From: Gammaproteobacteria bacterium
GTDB taxonomy: Bacteria > Pseudomonadota > Gammaproteobacteria > SZUA-152
DNA: 64,000 nucleotides
Assembly (NCBI GenBank): GCA_032250735.1
Contig: JAVVEP010000005.1
Location: 91,602-155,601 of the forward strand
Direction of reading: 5' to 3'
Shown: piece after piece, positions 46,542 to 53,765 of the stretch
Position numbering within the stretch: position 1 is the first letter of the stretch
Layout: every line of letters starts with the position of its first letter
Position numbers and translations under genes: made by a program
The notes under the pieces: generated by a model
Seen by the model: the letters and a program-made list of their open reading frames with translations, nothing else
The model's database searches: none
What the model was told of the DNA's origin: nothing

Positions 46542-47030
46542 ATGCCCAGGGTGTTTGTCGGCATCGGCAGTAATATCGATCGCGAGCGCAGCGTGCGGGC
46601 CGGGGTGGCCGAGTTGCAGCAGGCCTATGGCGATGTACAGCTGTCGTCCGTGTACGAAAGCGAGGCGGTGGGTTTCGACGGCGACGCCTTTTATAACCTG
46701 GTCGCGGCGTTTGATACCGACGACAGCGTCGACCAGGTGGTCGCCACCCTGGCGGCCATCGAGGATCGGCAGGGGCGCCTGCGTAGCGGCGAGCGCTTTG
46801 CGGCGCGGACCCTGGATCTGGACCTGCTGCTGTATGGCGACGCGGTCATCGCCACCGAAAACTATCACCTGCCGCGTGACGAGATTCCCCGTTATGCCTT
46901 TGTGTTGTGGCCGCTGGCCGAGCTGGCGCCGACCCTGCGCCATCCCGAGAGTGGCGAGGATTTCGCCAGCATGTGGGCGCGATTCGACAAAAGAAATCAG
47001 CCGCTGCGGCCGATAGTTTTCAAATGGTAG
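46542..47030 (+). CDS. folK: 2-amino-4-hydroxy-6-hydroxymethyldihydropteridine pyrophosphokinase
   Basis: 162 aa with HPPK motifs, 3 nt after folB. Confidence 0.85.
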   Translation: MPRVFVGIGSNIDRERSVRAGVAELQQAYGDVQLSSVYESEAVGFDGDAFYNLVAAFDTDDSVDQVVATLAAIEDRQGRLRSGERFAARTLDLDLLLYGDAVIATENYHLPRDEIPRYAFVLWPLAELAPTLRHPESGEDFASMWARFDKRNQPLRPIVFKW

Positions 47031-47092
47031 CCTGACTCGCATTTCGCGCCAGGCCGATCACCGCCTGGGAAACCCTGAAACCGACCGCCGCA

Positions 47093-48298
47093 ATGACCGA
47101 CAGCACTAACCACAGCCCCGATACCAACAGCTTTAGCGAAATCACCGGCAGCGCCAGGCCGTTGATCCTCATTGTCGACGATTCCCCCACCATTCGCCTG
47201 TCCCTGAGCCGTGCGTTGCAGGATGAATTCAGGTCCGTCGAGGCGGTGGATGGCGAGGAGGCCTGGGAATTTCTCAGCAGCGATGAGCGCATCGAGGTGG
47301 TGATCACCGATCTGTCGATGCCAAAACTGGATGGTCTGGGGCTGGTCAAGCGCATGCGGGAGAGCGTGGTGTCGCGGATCCGCAACGTGCCGGTGATCAT
47401 GGTCACCGGAGGTGACGATACCGACGTGCGGGAAAAGGCCTTCCAGGCGGGGGTCAATGATTTCGTCACCAAGACCAGCGATCGCGTCGAGCTGCTGGCC
47501 CGCCTGCGCGCCCACCGAAAGCTGGCGGTAACGATTCGCGAACTGGAAGAGAGTCAGCGCTCACTGCGCGAGCAGGCCAACACCGACATGCTGACCCGGC
47601 TGGCCAACCGGCGCTTTTTTACCCATGTCGCCGACAAGGAACTGTCGCTGATGCGCCGGCAAAAGGAATATTTTGCGGTGCTGATGATGGACATCGACCA
47701 CTTCAAGCACACCAACGATACCTTCGGTCACGCCGCTGGCGATTACGTACTGGTGCAGGTGGCCCAGGCCCTGAGCAAGGCCGTGCGCGCCGAGGATACC
47801 GTGGCGCGCATCGGTGGCGAGGAGTTTGTGGTCAGTTCGCCCTACACCAACCGGCTGGCGGCCATTGTGCTCGCCGAGCGCCTGCGCAAGGCGGTGGAAT
47901 CGCTGGATCTGCAGTTCGAGGGCAACCACATCCCGGTCACCATCAGCATCGGCATTGCCCTGCAGCCGCAGGATGGCGATGCCCTGGATACCCTGCTGGC
48001 GGCCGCCGACGAGCGCCTGTACCTGGCGAAAAATGCCGGCCGCAATCGATTCTGTGCGGCCGACAAACAGCACAGCGAGCCGGCTGTGGGGGTGGATATG
48101 CTCTGCCCGCAACTGGACGAGGCCGTCTCCATGATCCGTCACGGCAACCTGCAGCGGCTGATACCGCACCTGCCGACCCTGCTGGAGAGGCTGATCCCCC
48201 TGTTTGAGCTGGTGAACGAGGAGTCGCCGGTGGAGATCGATGTGGATCAGGTGCGCGCGGCGATCATCGCGCTGAAGGCCAAGGGTGTGTCGGATTGA
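47093..48298 (+). CDS. Response-regulator diguanylate cyclase (REC-GGDEF)
   Basis: REC domain plus an intact RIGGEEF active site and an RAED I-site. Confidence 0.8.
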   Translation: MTDSTNHSPDTNSFSEITGSARPLILIVDDSPTIRLSLSRALQDEFRSVEAVDGEEAWEFLSSDERIEVVITDLSMPKLDGLGLVKRMRESVVSRIRNVPVIMVTGGDDTDVREKAFQAGVNDFVTKTSDRVELLARLRAHRKLAVTIRELEESQRSLREQANTDMLTRLANRRFFTHVADKELSLMRRQKEYFAVLMMDIDHFKHTNDTFGHAAGDYVLVQVAQALSKAVRAEDTVARIGGEEFVVSSPYTNRLAAIVLAERLRKAVESLDLQFEGNHIPVTISIGIALQPQDGDALDTLLAAADERLYLAKNAGRNRFCAADKQHSEPAVGVDMLCPQLDEAVSMIRHGNLQRLIPHLPTLLERLIPLFELVNEESPVEIDVDQVRAAIIALKAKGVSD

Positions 48299-48413
48299 GG
48301 ATGAGCTGGTTATGGCAGAGAGAGTGTGGACGAAACCATAAAATGACCGCTCCATGAATTCACCGGTTTTTCTACCGCCGCGTTAGAAGTCAAAGACTGA
48401 TCATACTTGCAGG

Positions 48414-48489
48414 GGATTGGGGTCATTGCCTGACTTTGCACATCCACAATTCAGCATTTCAGAGGAGTGTAAAGTCAAGCAATGACCCC
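48414..48489. repeat. About 75-bp imperfect palindromic element (ggggtcattgcctgactttgcaca...tgtaaagtcaagcaatgacccc) with tandem tail repeats
   Basis: Its reverse complement recurs at 49879-49945, on the other side of the histidine kinase gene. Confidence 0.6.
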
Positions 48490-48610
48490 CTGTCGATGAT
48501 GACCCCCTGTCGATGCTACTCTACCCGAATCCTGACCCTAAATTGCTTATGAGGTGCCTACCCAAAAAGGAATTTAAGAAAAATAAAAACCAGGCCGATA
48601 CCCACATGGA

Positions 48611-49867
48611 TTGTATAACAATAACAATGAGGAATTATCTGTGTTTTCCATGCAACCCGCTAAATGTCCTTACTACTTGGCCAACACCGCATGTCACGGC
48701 ACAGAGGGCGCACGTAACCAAGAGACGTACCTGCGCACCGTACTCGAACACGTTCTGGATGGGATTATCTCCATCAATGCCTACGGTATTATCGAAATCT
48801 TCAATCCCGCCGCCGAGCGCATGACCGGCTATACTCGTGCCGAAGTTCTGGGACGCAGTATCAATATGCTTATGCCCGCGCACCTCGCCGAGGAGCACGA
48901 TGGCAACATGCAACAGTTTAAACAAAGCCGCACATCGCGAATTATGGGCACCATCCGTGAAGTCCCGGTGATGCGCAAGGACGGCACGGTCTTTCCCGCC
49001 GAACTTGCCGTCACCTACATGGAACAGAAGGAACAGCCTGTGTTCATCGGGAGCCTACGCGACGTGAGCGAACGCAAACGCGTGGAAGATGAACTCAAAA
49101 AACACCACGACAATCTTGAAAAACTCGTGCGGGATCGCACAGTAGAACTCGAAGTATCAAAAGAACAATCGCAACAGGCCAATCACGCCAAGAGCGCGTT
49201 TCTCGCCAGCATGAGCCACGAGTTGCGCACGCCGCTCAATGCCATCTTGGGCTACAGCGAAATACTCAAGGAAGACATGGAGGCCGAGGGTTATCTGGGC
49301 GCCGTGGAAGACCTGGATAAAATCGCCAACGCGGGCAAACATCTGTTGGCGCTGATCAACGACATTCTTGACATCTCCAAAATCGAGGCGGGTAAGTTCG
49401 AACTCGTCGAAGCTGATGTCGAAGTTGGCACGCTCATCGCCAGCGTCGCCGCAACGACCCTCCCGTTGGTGGAAAAAAACAATAATCGTCTGGAAATCCA
49501 CTGTCCCGTCGACATTGGAGATATCAAGGCCGATGCCATGCGCCTGCGACAGACACTGCTCAATCTGCTCGGCAACAGCGCCAAATTCACGCAACAGGGC
49601 AGAGTCCGTCTTGAGGTCGAGCGCCTCGATGATCACATCTGTTTTTGCGTTTTCGATACCGGCATCGGCATGACCCGAGAACAGATGGGCCGCCTGTTCG
49701 AAACCTTCTCCCAAGCCGACGCGTCAATTACCCATCAATACGGCGGAACGGGACTTGGTCTAGCCATCAGCCGGCGCCTTTCGCGACTGATGGGGGGCGA
49801 TATCGATGTGGAGAGCGAGTTCGGTAAAGGGTCTTGTTTTACGCTAACTCTGCCGGTTGCTCGATGA
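48611..49867 (+). CDS. Cytoplasmic PAS-domain sensor histidine kinase (HisKA plus HATPase_c), no receiver domain
   Basis: H-box [19 protein letters not shown] and N/G1/G2 boxes. GC content is clearly lower than in flanking genes. Confidence 0.8.
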
Positions 49868-49878
49868 GTGACGGGAGT

Positions 49879-50058
49879 GGGGTCACTTGACTTTACACTC
49901 CTCTGAAATACTGAATTGTGGATGTGTAAAGTCAAGCAATGACCCCAGACCCTGCAGACCCTCCATTTCAGATGAGTGCAAAGTCAAGCAATGACCCCAG
50001 ACCCTCCAAGCAATGACCCCAGACCCTCCAAAGTCAAGCAATGACCCCAGACCCCTTG
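49879..50058. repeat. Palindromic element copy plus four tandem aagtcaagcaatgaccccagaccctcc-type repeats
   Basis: Direct repeats were read off the sequence; they are not separated by unique spacers. Confidence 0.6.
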
Positions 50059-50345
50059 CGACTCTACGGCCATGTTGTCAGGAGTCTCTATAAGTGGTTG
50101 AATCGCAGGAGTCAACGTCACAGCTACAACTGGGCAGGACTCAAGCAGCGTTGGATTACTTCGGTATTCAACCTCTGCGCGTCTGGAGGCGTACCCACGT
50201 AGTAGTGGATTGGTACTAGGGTCGTGCTTGCACGGGCGAATAATTTGATTGAGGAGCCGGATGCGGTAATTCCGCACGTCCGGATCTGTGTCGGGGCCGC
50301 CGGGTAACTGGCGGTCTTACGACGACGGTAGTCGCAAAAAAGCTA

Positions 50346-50663
50346 ATGAAAGAATCAGACTGGAAAATATTCAAAGAAATAAAAGAAAAAGCAATTAAGC
50401 TTTTTTGCAGTCGTGCATTAGAAGAATTCAATGAAATCATAAAAGACAAAAATTCAAAACCAGAAGAAGCCTATACTCTACTTTACAGAATAGTAATAAA
50501 TAGAGACAAACAAATGTCACTACTATTTGATAGTCACAGCAGATCAAAAGCCACTTTACAGCTGCTGGCTATACGAGGAGAGAATTTAGCTGATCAAGAG
50601 TTGCTTAAAAAGCTTTCAAGTGAATTCCTTGAGGTCACAGACCCCAGGAAGGTGAGCTGGTAA
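50346..50663 (+). CDS. Hypothetical protein, AT-rich, likely horizontally acquired
   Basis: 105-aa Lys/Glu-rich ORF in a local low-GC segment. Confidence 0.35.
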   Translation: MKESDWKIFKEIKEKAIKLFCSRALEEFNEIIKDKNSKPEEAYTLLYRIVINRDKQMSLLFDSHSRSKATLQLLAIRGENLADQELLKKLSSEFLEVTDPRKVSW

Positions 50664-50961
50664 AATGCCTAACAAACGCATCAAATCGTTCGCTATCACT
50701 CACTCGGGCCGTCAAAAAACGGCGACCGTTTATGCTAAACGTTCTTGAATGTCTGCTACCGGGAAATTTACTCGTTTGTTGTTACAAAACGCCAAGGTCC
50801 GCAAACGCTGCATTGCAGAAGTAACCAGATTCCCTGTGAATGACTTTTTGATACTAAAGCGGACACACTATTCTTGACGGTTCTCCCTATGCCCGACAGT
50901 CTCCTGGGCAGGAAAAATAACAACAACCGCAGTCGGCCGGTATGTTCACGGGCGTCCGGTC

Positions 50962-51558
50962 TCAGTCTCCGGCTTTCACCCACACCAGAATATTGTTGTT
51001 GGCCGGCATGGTGTAATCGGCCGCGCGCTCGAGTCCGGCCTGCGCCGCCAGCGTATCCAGCTCGGCCTTGTCCCGAATCCCGCTCCTGGCATCCCGCGAC
51101 TTCAGCCAGCGCTCGAATGCGGCATTGCTGGGCGAGGTGAATCTGCCGTCGACGTTGAATGGCCCGTAGAGGCAGAAGCGCCCGCCCGGACGCAATATCC
51201 GCCCGATACCCGCAAATAGCCTTTCCACCTCCGGCCAGCCCATGATGTGCACGGTGTTGGCGCTGAACACGGCGTCGTAGTCGGTGTCGGGCCAGGGATC
51301 GGTGGCCACGTCCAGCGCCAGCGGGGGGAGCACATTGTCCGGCCCCTGTTCGCTGATCCAGGCCTCGATGCCGGCGTGGTGTGCGCGCACATCGCTGGTC
51401 TGCCAGCGCAGGTGGGGCAGCTCGACGGCGAAAAAGACTGCATGCTGGCCGGTGCCGCTGCCGATCTCCAGCAGCTCCCGGGCGTGCATCAGCTCCTGAC
51501 GTAACACCGCCAGGATGGCGTGCTTGTTCTGCTCGCAGGATTCGGCGTAGGGTTTCAT
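50962..51558 (-). CDS. DUF938-family class I SAM-dependent methyltransferase
   Basis: LEIGSGTGQH SAM-binding motif. 198 aa. Confidence 0.6.
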   Translation of the reverse strand: MKPYAESCEQNKHAILAVLRQELMHARELLEIGSGTGQHAVFFAVELPHLRWQTSDVRAHHAGIEAWISEQGPDNVLPPLALDVATDPWPDTDYDAVFSANTVHIMGWPEVERLFAGIGRILRPGGRFCLYGPFNVDGRFTSPSNAAFERWLKSRDARSGIRDKAELDTLAAQAGLERAADYTMPANNNILVWVKAGD

Positions 51559-51575
51559 GCTGACCTCGCTACCGG

Positions 51576-52364
51576 CTAGCTGTTGAGTGAACGGCCGCCA
51601 TCGACGGTGATGACCTGGCCGCTGGTGTAGTCGGCATCGCGGATCAGGAACAGCGCGGCGCGGGCAATGTCGCGCGGGCTGCCCTGGCGCTTGAGGAAGG
51701 TGCGCGAGACGATGCGTTGCTGGGTGACCTCATCAAGCTCCCGTTCCGGCCAGAGGATGGCGCCGGGGGCGATGGCGTTGACGCGCACCTCGGGGCCCAG
51801 CTCGCAGGCCAGCGACTTGGTCAGCATCACCAGCCCGGCCTTGGCGATACTATAGACCGGAAAGCGTTTCAGCGGTCGCTCGGCATGGATGTCGGCGATG
51901 TTAACAATGCAGCCGCGCTGCTGCTTGATGTGCGGCGCCGCCGCCTGGGACAGAAAGAAGGGTGCCTTGAGATTGGTGCCGATGAGGTCGTCCCATTCGG
52001 TCTCGCTCACCGAGCCCAGCGGGGTGGGATAAAAGCTGGAGGCGTTATTGATCAGCACGTCAAGCCGCCCCCAGGTGGCGAGGGCATCGCCGATCACCGC
52101 GGGCAGCGCGGCCTGGTCCAGCAGGTCGGCGCGCACCAGCACCACGGAATCGGCGCGCAGGGCGTTGAGCTCTTTCTGCAGGGCCTGGGCGGCGCTGCGC
52201 GAGGCGCGATAGTGCAGCACCAGTCGCGCGCCCTCTTTATGCAGGGTGCGGGCGATCACGGCGCCGATGCGATGCACGCCGCCGGTGATCAGGATCACAC
52301 GATCCTGCAGGCTCCCTGGGGCGGCGGCAGGCGTGTCGTCAGTGGGTTGTGTGGTATCCTTCAA
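51576..52364 (-). CDS. Short-chain dehydrogenase, pteridine reductase (FolM/PTR1-like)
   Basis: ITGGVHRIG, NNAS and YSIAK SDR motifs. The context is pterin metabolism. Confidence 0.6.
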   Translation of the reverse strand: MKDTTQPTDDTPAAAPGSLQDRVILITGGVHRIGAVIARTLHKEGARLVLHYRASRSAAQALQKELNALRADSVVLVRADLLDQAALPAVIGDALATWGRLDVLINNASSFYPTPLGSVSETEWDDLIGTNLKAPFFLSQAAAPHIKQQRGCIVNIADIHAERPLKRFPVYSIAKAGLVMLTKSLACELGPEVRVNAIAPGAILWPERELDEVTQQRIVSRTFLKRQGSPRDIARAALFLIRDADYTSGQVITVDGGRSLNS

Positions 52365-52511
52365 GCCGTTGTTTCCAGTCTGTCAGCGAATAATCGCCGG
52401 TGGTCGAGTCACCCGCCACACGGGTGCTCACACTGTAACGTAACTCTGTATTTATTGCCCGCCATTGGTGACGATAGTCCAATGCCGGCCTGACCCGAGC
52501 GTCGATTCGTC

Positions 52512-53765
52512 ATGTCACCCGTACGTCCTCCCGAAAGCCTGTTGCAGCTACCCACGCCCGATGCCGAGGCGCAGGCCCACAGCGAAAGGCTCATCAGCCT
52601 GATCACCGACGAGATCGCCGCGGCGGGTGGTGGCATCAGCTTTGCCCGTTACATGGAGCTGGCGCTGTTCGCGCCGGGGCTGGGCTATTACTCGGCGGGG
52701 GCCAGCAAGTTTGGCGAGCAGGGGGATTTTGTCACCGCCCCGGAGATCTCCCCGCTGTTCTCGCGGGCCCTGGCGCAACAGGTGGCGGAGGTGCTGACGG
52801 CGCTGGAACCAACAGGGAAGGCGACCGGCAGTGGCGAGGTGCTGGAGGTCGGTGGCGGCACCGGCTGCATGGCCGCCGACATGCTGGCCGAGCTGGAGAC
52901 CCTGGGCGTCCTGCCGGCTCGCTACAGCATCCTGGAGCTGAGCGCCGATCTGCAGGCCCGCCAACACCAGACCCTCAGCGAACGGGTGCCCCACCTGCTG
53001 CCCCGGGTGCAGTGGCTGAACGCCCTGCCGGCGTCGGGCTTTCGCGGGGTGGTGGTGGCCAACGAGCTGCTGGATGCGCTGCCCGTGCACTGCTTCCGGG
53101 TGCACAAGCGGGGCATGGGCGAGGCGGGCCTGCGGGAACGCTGGGTCGGTTTTGAGCAGGGCCGTTTTCAGTGGCGCAGTGACGACTTGGCACCCGCGCC
53201 GGTGCTACAACAACAGCTGCCTCTCGCGCTGCTGGACCAGCTCAGCGGCCTGCCCGACGGCTATGAATCGGAAGTGAACCTGGCGGCCGGCGCCTGGGTC
53301 GAGGCGCTCGCCGAGCGGCTGGCGGCCGGTGTGGTGCTGCTCATCGACTACGGCTTCCCCCGCCATGAGTATTACCATCCGCAGCGCAGTCGCGGCACCC
53401 TGATGTGTCACTACCGGCATCGCGCCCACGACGACCCCTTCGTCTATCCCGGCCTGCAGGACATCACCGCCCACGTGGACTTCACCGCCATCGCCGAGGC
53501 CGCCGTGGCGGCCGGGCTGGAGGTGCGCGGGTATAATACCCAGGGGCTGTTCCTACTCGGCTGCGGGCTGGCGGAACTGGCGCAGCGCTCCGAGGACCCC
53601 ACCGCAGAACACAATGAACGACAGCAGATCCTCCAGGCGCAGCAGATCCGCCGCCTGACCCTGCCCGGGGAGATGGGGGAGCGCTTCAAGGTGATCGCCC
53701 TGAGCCGGAATTATGACCATCCCCTGCGGGGCTTTGCCCTGCAGGATCTGCGTCATCAGCTTTGA
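52512..53765 (+). CDS. MidA/NDUFAF7-family SAM-dependent methyltransferase (DUF185)
   Basis: 417 aa with the LEVGGGTG motif and family-typical length. Confidence 0.6.
   Translation: MSPVRPPESLLQLPTPDAEAQAHSERLISLITDEIAAAGGGISFARYMELALFAPGLGYYSAGASKFGEQGDFVTAPEISPLFSRALAQQVAEVLTALEPTGKATGSGEVLEVGGGTGCMAADMLAELETLGVLPARYSILELSADLQARQHQTLSERVPHLLPRVQWLNALPASGFRGVVVANELLDALPVHCFRVHKRGMGEAGLRERWVGFEQGRFQWRSDDLAPAPVLQQQLPLALLDQLSGLPDGYESEVNLAAGAWVEALAERLAAGVVLLIDYGFPRHEYYHPQRSRGTLMCHYRHRAHDDPFVYPGLQDITAHVDFTAIAEAAVAAGLEVRGYNTQGLFLLGCGLAELAQRSEDPTAEHNERQQILQAQQIRRLTLPGEMGERFKVIALSRNYDHPLRGFALQDLRHQL

Follow-up and report, generated by a model that had tools for sequence, protein, structure and literature searches.

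The window analysed here is a stretch of 64,000 nucleotides from the gammaproteobacterial assembly GCA_032250735.1 (contig JAVVEP010000005.1, positions 91,602 to 155,601); coordinates below are those of the window. Its interval 48299–50961 separates two convergent genes, a REC-GGDEF response regulator gene on the left (47093–48298, forward strand) and a gene for a DUF938 methyltransferase-like protein on the right (50962–51558, reverse strand). From left to right, this island contains a hairpin dimer (dimer A), a gene for a PAS histidine kinase, a second dimer in the opposite orientation (dimer B), an array of repeat ends, the 3'-terminal piece of a group II intron, and an open reading frame (ORF) for 105 residues, ORF105, followed by an integron attC site. 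None of the parts is of a new kind: the repeats are of the TIRYT/RAYT type, the intron piece derives from a group II intron, the cassette is a solitary one of the integron type, and the kinase is FixL-like. The island is a 2.7-kb mosaic of mobile DNA rather than one cassette.

The island is an insertion between the two convergent genes, both of which are native to the locus. The response regulator has Pfam Response_reg and GGDEF domains and orthologues with 83–85% amino acid identity in conserved synteny; the DUF938 gene (Pfam DUF938, E 9e-71) is also syntenic. The order plsY-folB-folK-REC-GGDEF, followed by the convergent DUF938-SDR, Methyltransf_28 and more genes, is kept in six contigs, which represent no fewer than three related lineages and in which REC-GGDEF and DUF938 are 7–280 bp apart. 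The interval 48299–50961 is absent from all six, which is why we call it an insertion. Nucleotide homology between window and relatives is continuous over about 44.3–55.3 kb save for 48283–50973, breaking off at 48283 and resuming at 50973, and a terminator-like hairpin of the DUF938 gene (50924–50939, reverse strand) is the probable point at which native DNA resumes. Of the two junction segments (48299–48418, GC content 0.475, and 50751–50911, GC content 0.478), the left one has no homology to the intergenic DNA of the relatives, and for the right one no homology was found. Likewise, 48299–48418, 48516–48575 and 50748–50961 have no relatives in any of the loci from other genomes and metagenomes with which the window was compared (labelled with L-numbers, L006, L023 and so on up to L200). 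A first-pass annotation, made from the letters of the DNA, had proposed that the kinase gene was acquired and had pointed to the folK–DUF938 interval of relatives as the place to check this; the relatives indeed lack the kinase at this locus.

The same annotation had estimated that the GC content drops from about 65% to about 50% over 48.3–50.9 kb. The computed value for 48300–50900 is 0.498, against 0.628 for 46542–48298, 0.664 for 50962–53765 and 0.611 for the whole window, so the drop is real. It is unevenly distributed, with 0.546 in the kinase gene, 0.346 in ORF105 and 0.38–0.56 in the remaining segments of the island. Codon usage points the same way, the composition of the kinase gene being foreign: GC content at third codon positions (GC3) is 0.64 in the kinase gene and 0.31 in ORF105, compared with 0.78–0.84 in five neighbouring genes. 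Low GC content alone is a weak signature of the donor, because homologous kinase genes have a GC content of about 0.55 on their home contigs (of about 0.60) and the syntenic relatives, with DNA 73–77% identical to that of the window, themselves have a GC content of just 0.47–0.50.

The kinase gene (48650–49867, forward strand, with an alternative GTG start at 48642) is intact and encodes a protein of 405 amino acids with Pfam PAS, HisKA and HATPase_c domains, in which the H-box, N-box and G-boxes are invariant in the alignment with its homologues. It has no hydrophobic segment (the maximum Kyte-Doolittle mean over 19 residues is 1.38), in keeping with its earlier description as a soluble PAS histidine kinase. 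The PAS domain (encoded by 48650–49120) matches the heme domains of FixL, 8js5 and 1dp6, with an E-value of 1e-24 and with the histidine of the EHDG motif aligned; the next match is DosP. As the PAS domain is FixL-like and retains the heme proximal-histidine motif, the protein is probably, judging by its sequence, a FixL-like heme-PAS kinase and an orphan O2/heme sensor. The resemblance to FixL covers the heme-PAS with its proximal histidine, with heme binding predicted, and the HisKA plus HATPase_c core after the PAS domain. Unlike FixL, the kinase has no adjacent FixJ-type partner, and its core scores best against the hybrid kinases TorS and BarA, below cutoff.

Close homologues of the kinase are rare: a collection of 5.8 billion proteins contained only four, with 76–80% amino acid identity. 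Three of them have 401–405 residues and one has 527, with an extra N-terminal region, and all four end at the same residue as the kinase of the window. The possibility that the protein is a truncated hybrid kinase, raised by best NCBIfam matches to TorS and BarA well below their cutoffs, was rejected, as the four homologues end at the same residue. The kinase is full length compared with the four homologues and thus intact, and with a dN/dS ratio of 0.11–0.14 it is under selective constraint. On three contigs the homologous gene lies in the order DUF3579-MIF-DUF4124-kinase, facing a convergent lpdA-sucB-sucA, in DNA free of the repeats; the contig of the fourth homologue (L114) is too short to show neighbouring genes. 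No response regulator adjoins the kinase homologues, whose neighbours are DUF4124 and lpdA, and a FixJ-type regulator is found neither near the kinase here nor at the homologues' locus.

Nucleotide homology between the window and the loci of the homologues (L104–L107) spans only 48576–49856. In addition to the gene itself, this includes a strongly conserved leader of 75 nt (48576–48649, GCCGATACCCACA...GTATAACAATAACAATGAGGA), which forms the 3' part of the region upstream of the kinase (48516–48649, forward strand). A scan of the island for sigma-70 promoters gave no candidates. The tail of dimer A ends 134 nt ahead of the kinase start, dimer B begins 10 nt beyond the stop codon, and no pieces of lpdA or DUF4124 accompany the kinase in the island. 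For these reasons we regard the foreign kinase segment as gene-sized and bounded by the dimers.

The two dimers consist of terminal inverted repeats (TIRs). Dimer A (48419–48489, forward orientation) is 71 bp long, with inverted arms of 23 nt, GGGGTCATTGCCTGACTTTGCAC and GTGTAAAGTCAAGCAATGACCCC, and a loop of 25 nt. Dimer B (49878–49946, reverse orientation) is its reverse complement, with a 3-nt deletion in the left arm; the two match at 93% over 67 nt, which agrees with the earlier report of an inverted pair of palindromes bracketing the kinase. As single-stranded DNA both fold better than shuffled controls, A at −22 kcal/mol (z = −6.0) and B at −23.2 kcal/mol (z = −7.0). The arm 18-mer AAGTCAAGCAATGACCCC occurs five times in the window when up to three mismatches are allowed, with 0.03 occurrences expected by chance, and all five lie at 48419–50048, i.e., confined to 1.64 kb. 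The arms start with GGGGTCAT and have no GTAG head. Dimers A and B are 76–78% identical to dimers at the Nitrospira loci L023 and L073, and belong to the class of the family's inverted pairs to which a loop of about 55 nt was assigned.

Both dimers are followed by tails. That of A (48482–48515, forward strand) is a perfect duplication of 17 bp, ATGACCCCCTGTCGATG twice, composed of the element end and 9 nt of flank; the first copy overlaps the end of the dimer. This is the twofold tail that had been noticed previously. After B, an array of right ends (49947–50054, forward strand) contains a half dimer (49964–49998), an end of 13 nt (50007–50019) and an end of 19 nt (50030–50048), each followed by AGACCCTCC or AGACCCCTT. 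Here the first-pass annotation had seen four tandem repeats; repeated element ends are present, but they are irregular (a half element, a 13-nt and a 19-nt end) rather than four regular units, and Tandem Repeats Finder reports 3.0 copies with 79% matches and 20% indels for this tail.

The repeats are found in many other genomes. In a scan of one genome per species, the arm 19-mer AAAGTCARGCAATGACCCC occurs exactly in 103 genome stretches, which do not include the source genome of the window. Most are from Nitrospira and other Nitrospirota; others are from gammaproteobacterial assemblies (one labelled Ectothiorhodospiraceae), Thermodesulfobacteriota, Acidobacteria, Dadabacteria and more. No occurrence was found in a collection of viral contigs. 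Representative genomes contain at most about six stretches with the exact 19-mer, and within the window the repeats are limited to the island, so they do not behave like a common intergenic family of repetitive extragenic palindromic (REP) sequences unrelated to gene acquisition, the alternative that the first-pass annotation had named.

At least 14 loci have inverted copies of the repeat about 975 bp apart, enclosing an ORF for 313 amino acids; the whole unit measures about 995 bp, and its right repeat overlaps the final codons of the ORF (..CKVKQ*). The protein matches Pfam Y1_Tnp (E 5e-10) and passes the NCBIfam model REP_Tyr_transpos (83.6 bits, cutoff 80); its sole match among sequences in the Protein Data Bank (PDB) is E. 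coli TnpAREP, 4er8 (E 0.004). The transposases of the family are 57–84% identical to each other, while the element ends remain exact. Where such units are compared between genomes with unrelated flanks, the alignment extends from one repeat to the other, which identifies the element as mobile and discrete. Loops of about 55, 100, 140 or 200 nt are found in shorter inverted pairs, and because several of these pairs contain remnants of the transposase gene, we regard them as derivatives with internal deletions. Dimers A and B are thus non-autonomous hairpin dimers of the approximately 24-nt TIR, GGGGTCATTGCTTGACTTTRCAC, of a RAYT/TIRYT-type Y1 HUH element. Ends of the Tn3 family, which the initial GGGGTC had brought to mind, were ruled out, the ends flanking a Y1 gene.

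The tails in the window are also typical of the family, in which the element end and 5–12 nt of flank are duplicated. The conserved family end is GTGYAAAGTCAAGCAATGACCCC, followed by an A in 71% of the ends and then by a pyrimidine-rich flank. A second GACCCC is present within 90 nt of 23 of the 159 family ends, compared with 4.1% of random windows of 90 nt; at 15 of those 23 the same flank is repeated as well, most strikingly at L024, L030, L057, L074, L080 and L101. The tails may be a by-product of the chemistry at the element end, or of slippage at ATGA/GACCCC microhomology.

The closest published counterparts are the TIRtrons, with TIRYT transposases, for which Di Nocera et al. (2013) described RAYT-like Y1 genes flanked by long TIRs and moderately abundant repeats (PMC3733652). 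The family shares with them a Y1 HUH gene between inverted repeats of about 24 nt that are unrelated to GTAG REPs. TIRYT repeats were found as singles, dimers and clusters, with a GGGGWSAS motif in one subgroup (PMC3733652); singles, dimers and clusters at low to moderate copy number also characterise the present family, including the window, and GGGGTCAT fits seven of the eight positions of the motif, with all eight fitted by GGGGACAG of a related element at L117. The family's transposase is longer than a classical RAYT (313 amino acids compared with 165 for 4er8). The repeat family, its tails of end plus flank and the repeat-bounded cargo discussed below are not described in that paper or the others consulted, and no literature search was aimed at the family.

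The dimers also resemble the REPIN-RAYT system (Bertels & Rainey 2011, PMC3116915; Bertels et al. 2017, PMC5581495), in having a hairpin doublet of inverted repeats, for which a Y1 transposase presumably provides mobility in trans, and a transposase gene that is flanked by the same repeats and passes REP_Tyr_transpos. A tetranucleotide head, GTAG or CGTC, is a criterion for REP units (PMC3733652). The window family differs in lacking the GTAG head and in not being abundant and dispersed, its copy number remaining below the tens to hundreds of extragenic copies expected of REP sequences. Furthermore, classical RAYTs are vertically inherited, domesticated and single-copy, whereas the element found here occurs in several phyla as a discrete unit delimited by its repeats and therefore behaves like an insertion sequence.

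Elsewhere, dimers of the family bracket other genes. They enclose TacT/TacA (L023:6224–7298), DUF433/DUF5615 genes twice (L040:1760–4011 and L026:5706–7679), RelE with a helix-turn-helix (HTH) partner (L026), an addiction module (L098) and a TOTE primase-helicase (L029:1839–4787). At L076:3046–3655, and at the orthologous loci L021 and L072, a left arm, a RelE/ParE toxin-antitoxin pair and a right arm make up a unit of 610 bp without a transposase gene; the same toxin-antitoxin unit recurs in an unrelated context at L100:2326–3125, and homology is limited to the bounded unit. Between L023 and L037, the breakpoint of homology coincides precisely with a dimer's inner edge. The bracketing of toxin-antitoxin and TOTE genes by the repeat family was observed in Nitrospira genomes.

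Passenger genes without a transposase, lying between short inverted-repeat copies, are known from IS231-derived mobile insertion cassettes (MICs), units flanked by miniature inverted-repeat transposable elements (MITEs), integron mobilisation units and the pdif modules of Acinetobacter plasmids. The cargo of pdif modules typically consists of toxin-antitoxin or defence genes, as does the cargo of the repeat family elsewhere. The MIC/MITE-type and pdif systems use DDE transposases or XerC/D; the enzyme of the present family, in contrast, is a Y1 HUH transposase specific for single strands, and mobilisation of the kinase unit is something that we infer rather than observe.

Downstream of the array lies what remains of a group II intron, its 3' part (50055–50326, forward strand), which the first-pass annotation had overlooked together with the attC cassette, while correctly noting the AT-rich ORF for 105 amino acids. 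The remnant contains the last 45 or so, degenerate, codons of the intron-encoded protein, followed by a stretch that matches domains V and VI (50252–50326). The putative branch-point adenosine is at 50319, 7 nt ahead of the inferred 3' end, and the 3' splice site would come directly after 50326. Directly after the last repeat end, the reading frame reads ..LYKWLNRRSQRHSYNW.., resembling the C-terminus of a reverse transcriptase of 502 amino acids at L116, which ends just upstream of the site matching domains V and VI. Further relatives of the intron are present at L130 and L136. The domain V/VI stretch scores 29 bits against Rfam RF00029, for which the gathering score is 40, and blastn finds 241 plasmid records, nearly all of them 80–95% identical to this stretch, with ltrA annotated under one match. 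A reverse-transcriptase domain is absent from the 64-kb window; neither the 5' intron domains I–IV nor an intact maturase ORF is retained, and the piece is for this reason interpreted as a 5'-truncated remnant cut at the repeat end.

Two ORF105 loci contain relatives of the intron, L130 (1–1500) and L136 (320–2460). The relative at L136 is full-length; it interrupts the attC of the cassette and runs in the direction of the ORF. GTGCG comes after GCCTAACCATG... there, and the remaining attC, with GTTATAA, follows the intron 3' end. The remnant in the window has the same orientation as ORF105 too. Group IIC-attC introns enter the bottom strand of attC and thus run against the direction of the cassette ORFs (PMC3001079), from which the window remnant and the L136 copy differ in being oriented like the cassette ORF. 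Another 5'-truncated remnant of the same type of intron is found on a Catenovulum adriaticum plasmid (L115; NZ_CP109967.1, 290832–290932), with no reverse-transcriptase gene annotated in the 3 kb upstream. Its 3' exon begins with GTAGTC, like GGTAGTC in the window, which hints at a shared target motif.

ORF105 (50346–50663, forward strand) starts 19 nt after the intron 3' end. It is AT-rich and belongs to a family with 129 homologues of about 105 amino acids, and has no match in Pfam, NCBIfam, PHROGs or PDB sequences. Its predicted structure (pLDDT 94.3) is an all-helical model resembling the cyanobacterial Fluorescence Recovery Protein (FRP) and the proteobacterial FRP-like protein 8ag8, with Foldseek TM-scores of 0.74–0.80 against 5tz0 and 8ag8; the resemblance is one of fold, as no similarity was detected between the sequences. 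FRP-like proteins are reported to have a sporadic distribution and no assigned function (PMC10172135); spread on cassettes could lie behind this distribution.

The cassette nature of ORF105 is clear from its context, which we judged on those of the metagenome loci (L121–L200) that have enough flanking DNA. Most homologues have GTTAGGC 10–25 nt before the start codon and GCCTAAC-attC-GTTAGGC right after the stop codon, and their neighbouring genes are highly variable. At L160, an IntI-like ORF lies about 950 bp upstream on the opposite strand, at the expected position; it is 29% identical to IntI1. In the window, the attC (50667–50750, forward strand) has R'' GCCTAAC, L'' CATCAAA, L' TTTATG and R' GTTCTTG. 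CATCAAA pairs with TTTATG; R' keeps the GTT but has a non-canonical RRRY, and ..AAACGTT is found at 50744–50747. A crude scan had placed the attC end at 50784, which was replaced by 50750 after alignment with the homologous attC sites of L144, L165, L122 and L178. The minimum-energy fold of the attC is not diagnostic. No other attC-like sites were found in the 64 kb by the crude scan, and no tyrosine recombinase or intI in the window matched at E <= 1. With no integrase match in the window, ORF105 and its attC are a solitary integron cassette.

Other hairpin elements are seen next to ORF105 cassettes. At L117:8331–9149 (and also at L118–L120), the expected attC position is taken by a unit with a Y1_Tnp gene for 224 amino acids, AATTACGGGGACAGTATACCTATTTA repeats and a duplicated tail of 39 nt, and at L133:4387–4450 and L135:1040–1600, hairpins of the type GGGGTCGGAGTGATT..AATCACTCCGACCCC with GACCCCttt tails are found where the attC of ORF105 is expected. 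That ORF105 is generally linked to Y1 transposases, an idea prompted by L117–L120, was rejected: none of the 80 metagenome loci has a Y1 gene, and the neighbours of ORF105 vary greatly. ORF105 cassettes directly adjoin palindromes of the GGGG type or Y1 units at L117–L120, L130 and L133/L135, and such elements may target attC hairpins; these contacts also hint, faintly, that hairpin-dependent mobile elements cluster together. A comparable assembly was reported for Halorhodospira halochloris, in which a cluster of attC sites lacking an integron integrase (CALIN) contains an attC array and 5'-truncated group IIB introns, with IS200/IS605 adjacent (Sonbol & Siam 2021, PMC7923331). It shares with the window an attC cassette, a 5'-truncated intron in the same orientation, a Y1 element and an ectothiorhodospira-type gammaproteobacterial host, and in both all three parts rely on single-stranded DNA. 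The window differs in having one cassette, in having the Y1 element as non-autonomous dimers only, and in including a chromosomal kinase gene.

Two short motifs are found at the left edge of the island. GTTAGAA (48381–48387), 83 nt past the REC-GGDEF stop codon, resembles an integron R' core. The 11-mer GCTGGTTATGG lies at 48305, 7 nt past the same stop codon, and recurs at 32977 and 33022, in a second palindrome family in the intergenic DNA ahead of a prepilin-type gene (32973–33160). There, a 45-bp unit, GATGGCTGGTTATGGTTATAAGGGGTCTGACCCCTTTAAAAGAAC, is present twice, followed by a third GGGGTCTGACCCC and then by a tail, GTGACCCCTTTAAGTGCTCCTTTAAGTGCTTTAAG, in which an end and its flank are again duplicated. 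The window contains three copies of this second family, with 0.11 expected by chance. The GCTGGTTATGG at the edge of the island may be a remnant of an element of the second family at the insertion site.

Taken together, the locus can reasonably be read as an orphan kinase inserted by way of the repeats. The first-pass suggestion of a horizontally acquired or repeat-mediated cassette stands as regards the insertion itself, the foreign codon composition, the homologues at another locus and the mobile repeats; the notion of a single cassette does not. We lean modestly towards an account that treats the island as a mosaic of mobile DNA, with the kinase as repeat-bounded cargo that came to lie in the gap between convergent genes. 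Since REC-GGDEF and DUF938 both end there, the site would tolerate accretion of mobile DNA. The kinase would have been relocated between repeats, either by a Y1 transposase that was provided in trans and worked on single-stranded hairpins or by recombination between repeat copies; given the repeat-bounded cargo in other genomes, mobilisation is the most economical reading for the kinase. A repeat copy would have inserted in the intron, and a repeat-associated rearrangement would have deleted about 1.7 kb of its 5' part. Expression of the kinase, as an orphan sensor of O2/heme, probably relies on the leader that it brought along.

The specific step in this account, that the kinase moved as dimer-bounded cargo, we rate at close to an even chance, and several points weigh against it. 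No Y1 transposase gene was found within the 64-kb window. The arrangement repeat-kinase-repeat is a single instance rather than one recurring in two or more contexts, and an empty site that would give the exact breakpoints was not available. The kinase lies between two complete dimers, and the unit is therefore not a simple copy of the layout of the transposase element. The dimers around toxin-antitoxin genes could reflect co-accumulation in variable regions instead of mobilisation. The donor context would be of the L104 type, as judged from four or five metagenome contigs, and with relatives just 73–77% identical in DNA the insertion can be neither dated nor ordered.

Were the dimers latecomers, the kinase would have arrived independently of them, for instance through illegitimate recombination following transformation or conjugation, and the repeats would have colonised the new gaps independently. 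REP/REPIN-type elements favour gaps 3' of genes according to the literature, A and B are complete dimers, each capable of inserting separately, and the unrelated intron and cassette remnants show that the site was hit repeatedly and independently. However, two insertions would be needed exactly at both ends of a gene-sized foreign fragment, by a family that has no copies in the remaining 61 kb of the window and a low copy number in representative genomes. The kinase fragment also carries no pieces of donor neighbours, and a repeat-bounded cargo unit is known within the family. We therefore hold such independent accretion to be somewhat unlikely. A kinase that was ancestral at the locus and lost in the sampled relatives, with incidental repeats, would fit the fairly large distance of those relatives (73–77% nucleotide identity, 83–85% amino acid identity for REC-GGDEF), but it is hard to reconcile with the lack of the gene in six contigs from at least three lineages, homologues at a different conserved locus, a GC3 0.14–0.20 below that of the neighbours and embedding in three kinds of mobile-element debris, which together make this very improbable.

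The genuine cassette formed by ORF105 and its attC, ending in ..AAACGTTCTTG (50744–50750), raises the question of whether the island was pre-assembled and imported in one step by an integron-type integrase at a secondary GTT site, with boundaries at G|TTAGAAG (48381) and in the attC at ..AAACG|TT (50744). The position of GTTAGAA 83 nt past the REC-GGDEF stop codon would leave a native spacer of 83 + 217 = 300 bp, compared with 278 bp in the relative L108, and intron relatives are lodged in the attC of ORF105 cassettes, as at L136. On the other hand, the window contains no integrase and has no attC between the kinase and ORF105 or elsewhere, the kinase homologues are ordinary chromosomal genes rather than cassettes, a multi-module "cassette" of 2.4 kb would be atypical, and a motif as short as GTTAGAA may occur by chance. 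Such an import appears decidedly improbable. More speculatively, and in our estimation rather improbably, the repeat family might be a Y1 (HUH) gene-shuffling system, in which dimers delimit exchangeable modules such as toxin-antitoxin pairs, TOTE and the kinase. Modules would be excised and inserted via single-stranded hairpin intermediates, which would make them functional counterparts of integron cassettes or pdif modules; the micro-duplicated tails of end plus flank would be the scar of these events, and the chromosomal gene, intron remnant and attC cassette at this locus would be a snapshot of the recruitment of genes into cassette arrays.

For annotation, the position of the kinase next to the REC-GGDEF gene should not be taken as a sign of functional coupling. 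The first-pass annotation had suggested that the kinase could be a new input into this c-di-GMP response regulator, an idea that the present data speak neither for nor against. REC-GGDEF orthologues occur without this kinase, the kinase homologues adjoin no response regulator, and the two genes are adjacent because the insertion fell in a permissive gap between convergent genes. The locus illustrates a way in which an ordinary chromosomal sensor gene may change its place: the gene is delimited on either side by transposon-derived hairpins, in a gap that has also collected an intron fragment and an integron cassette. The biochemistry of RAYT/TIRYT-type Y1 transposases is still poorly understood, and the repeat family, being widespread (especially in Nitrospira) and discrete, with a conserved end of 24 nt and a recognisable scar, offers a tractable model for these enzymes. 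If true, dimer-mediated movement of cargo would be a route by which toxin-antitoxin, defence and signalling genes spread without DDE transposases or site-specific recombinases.

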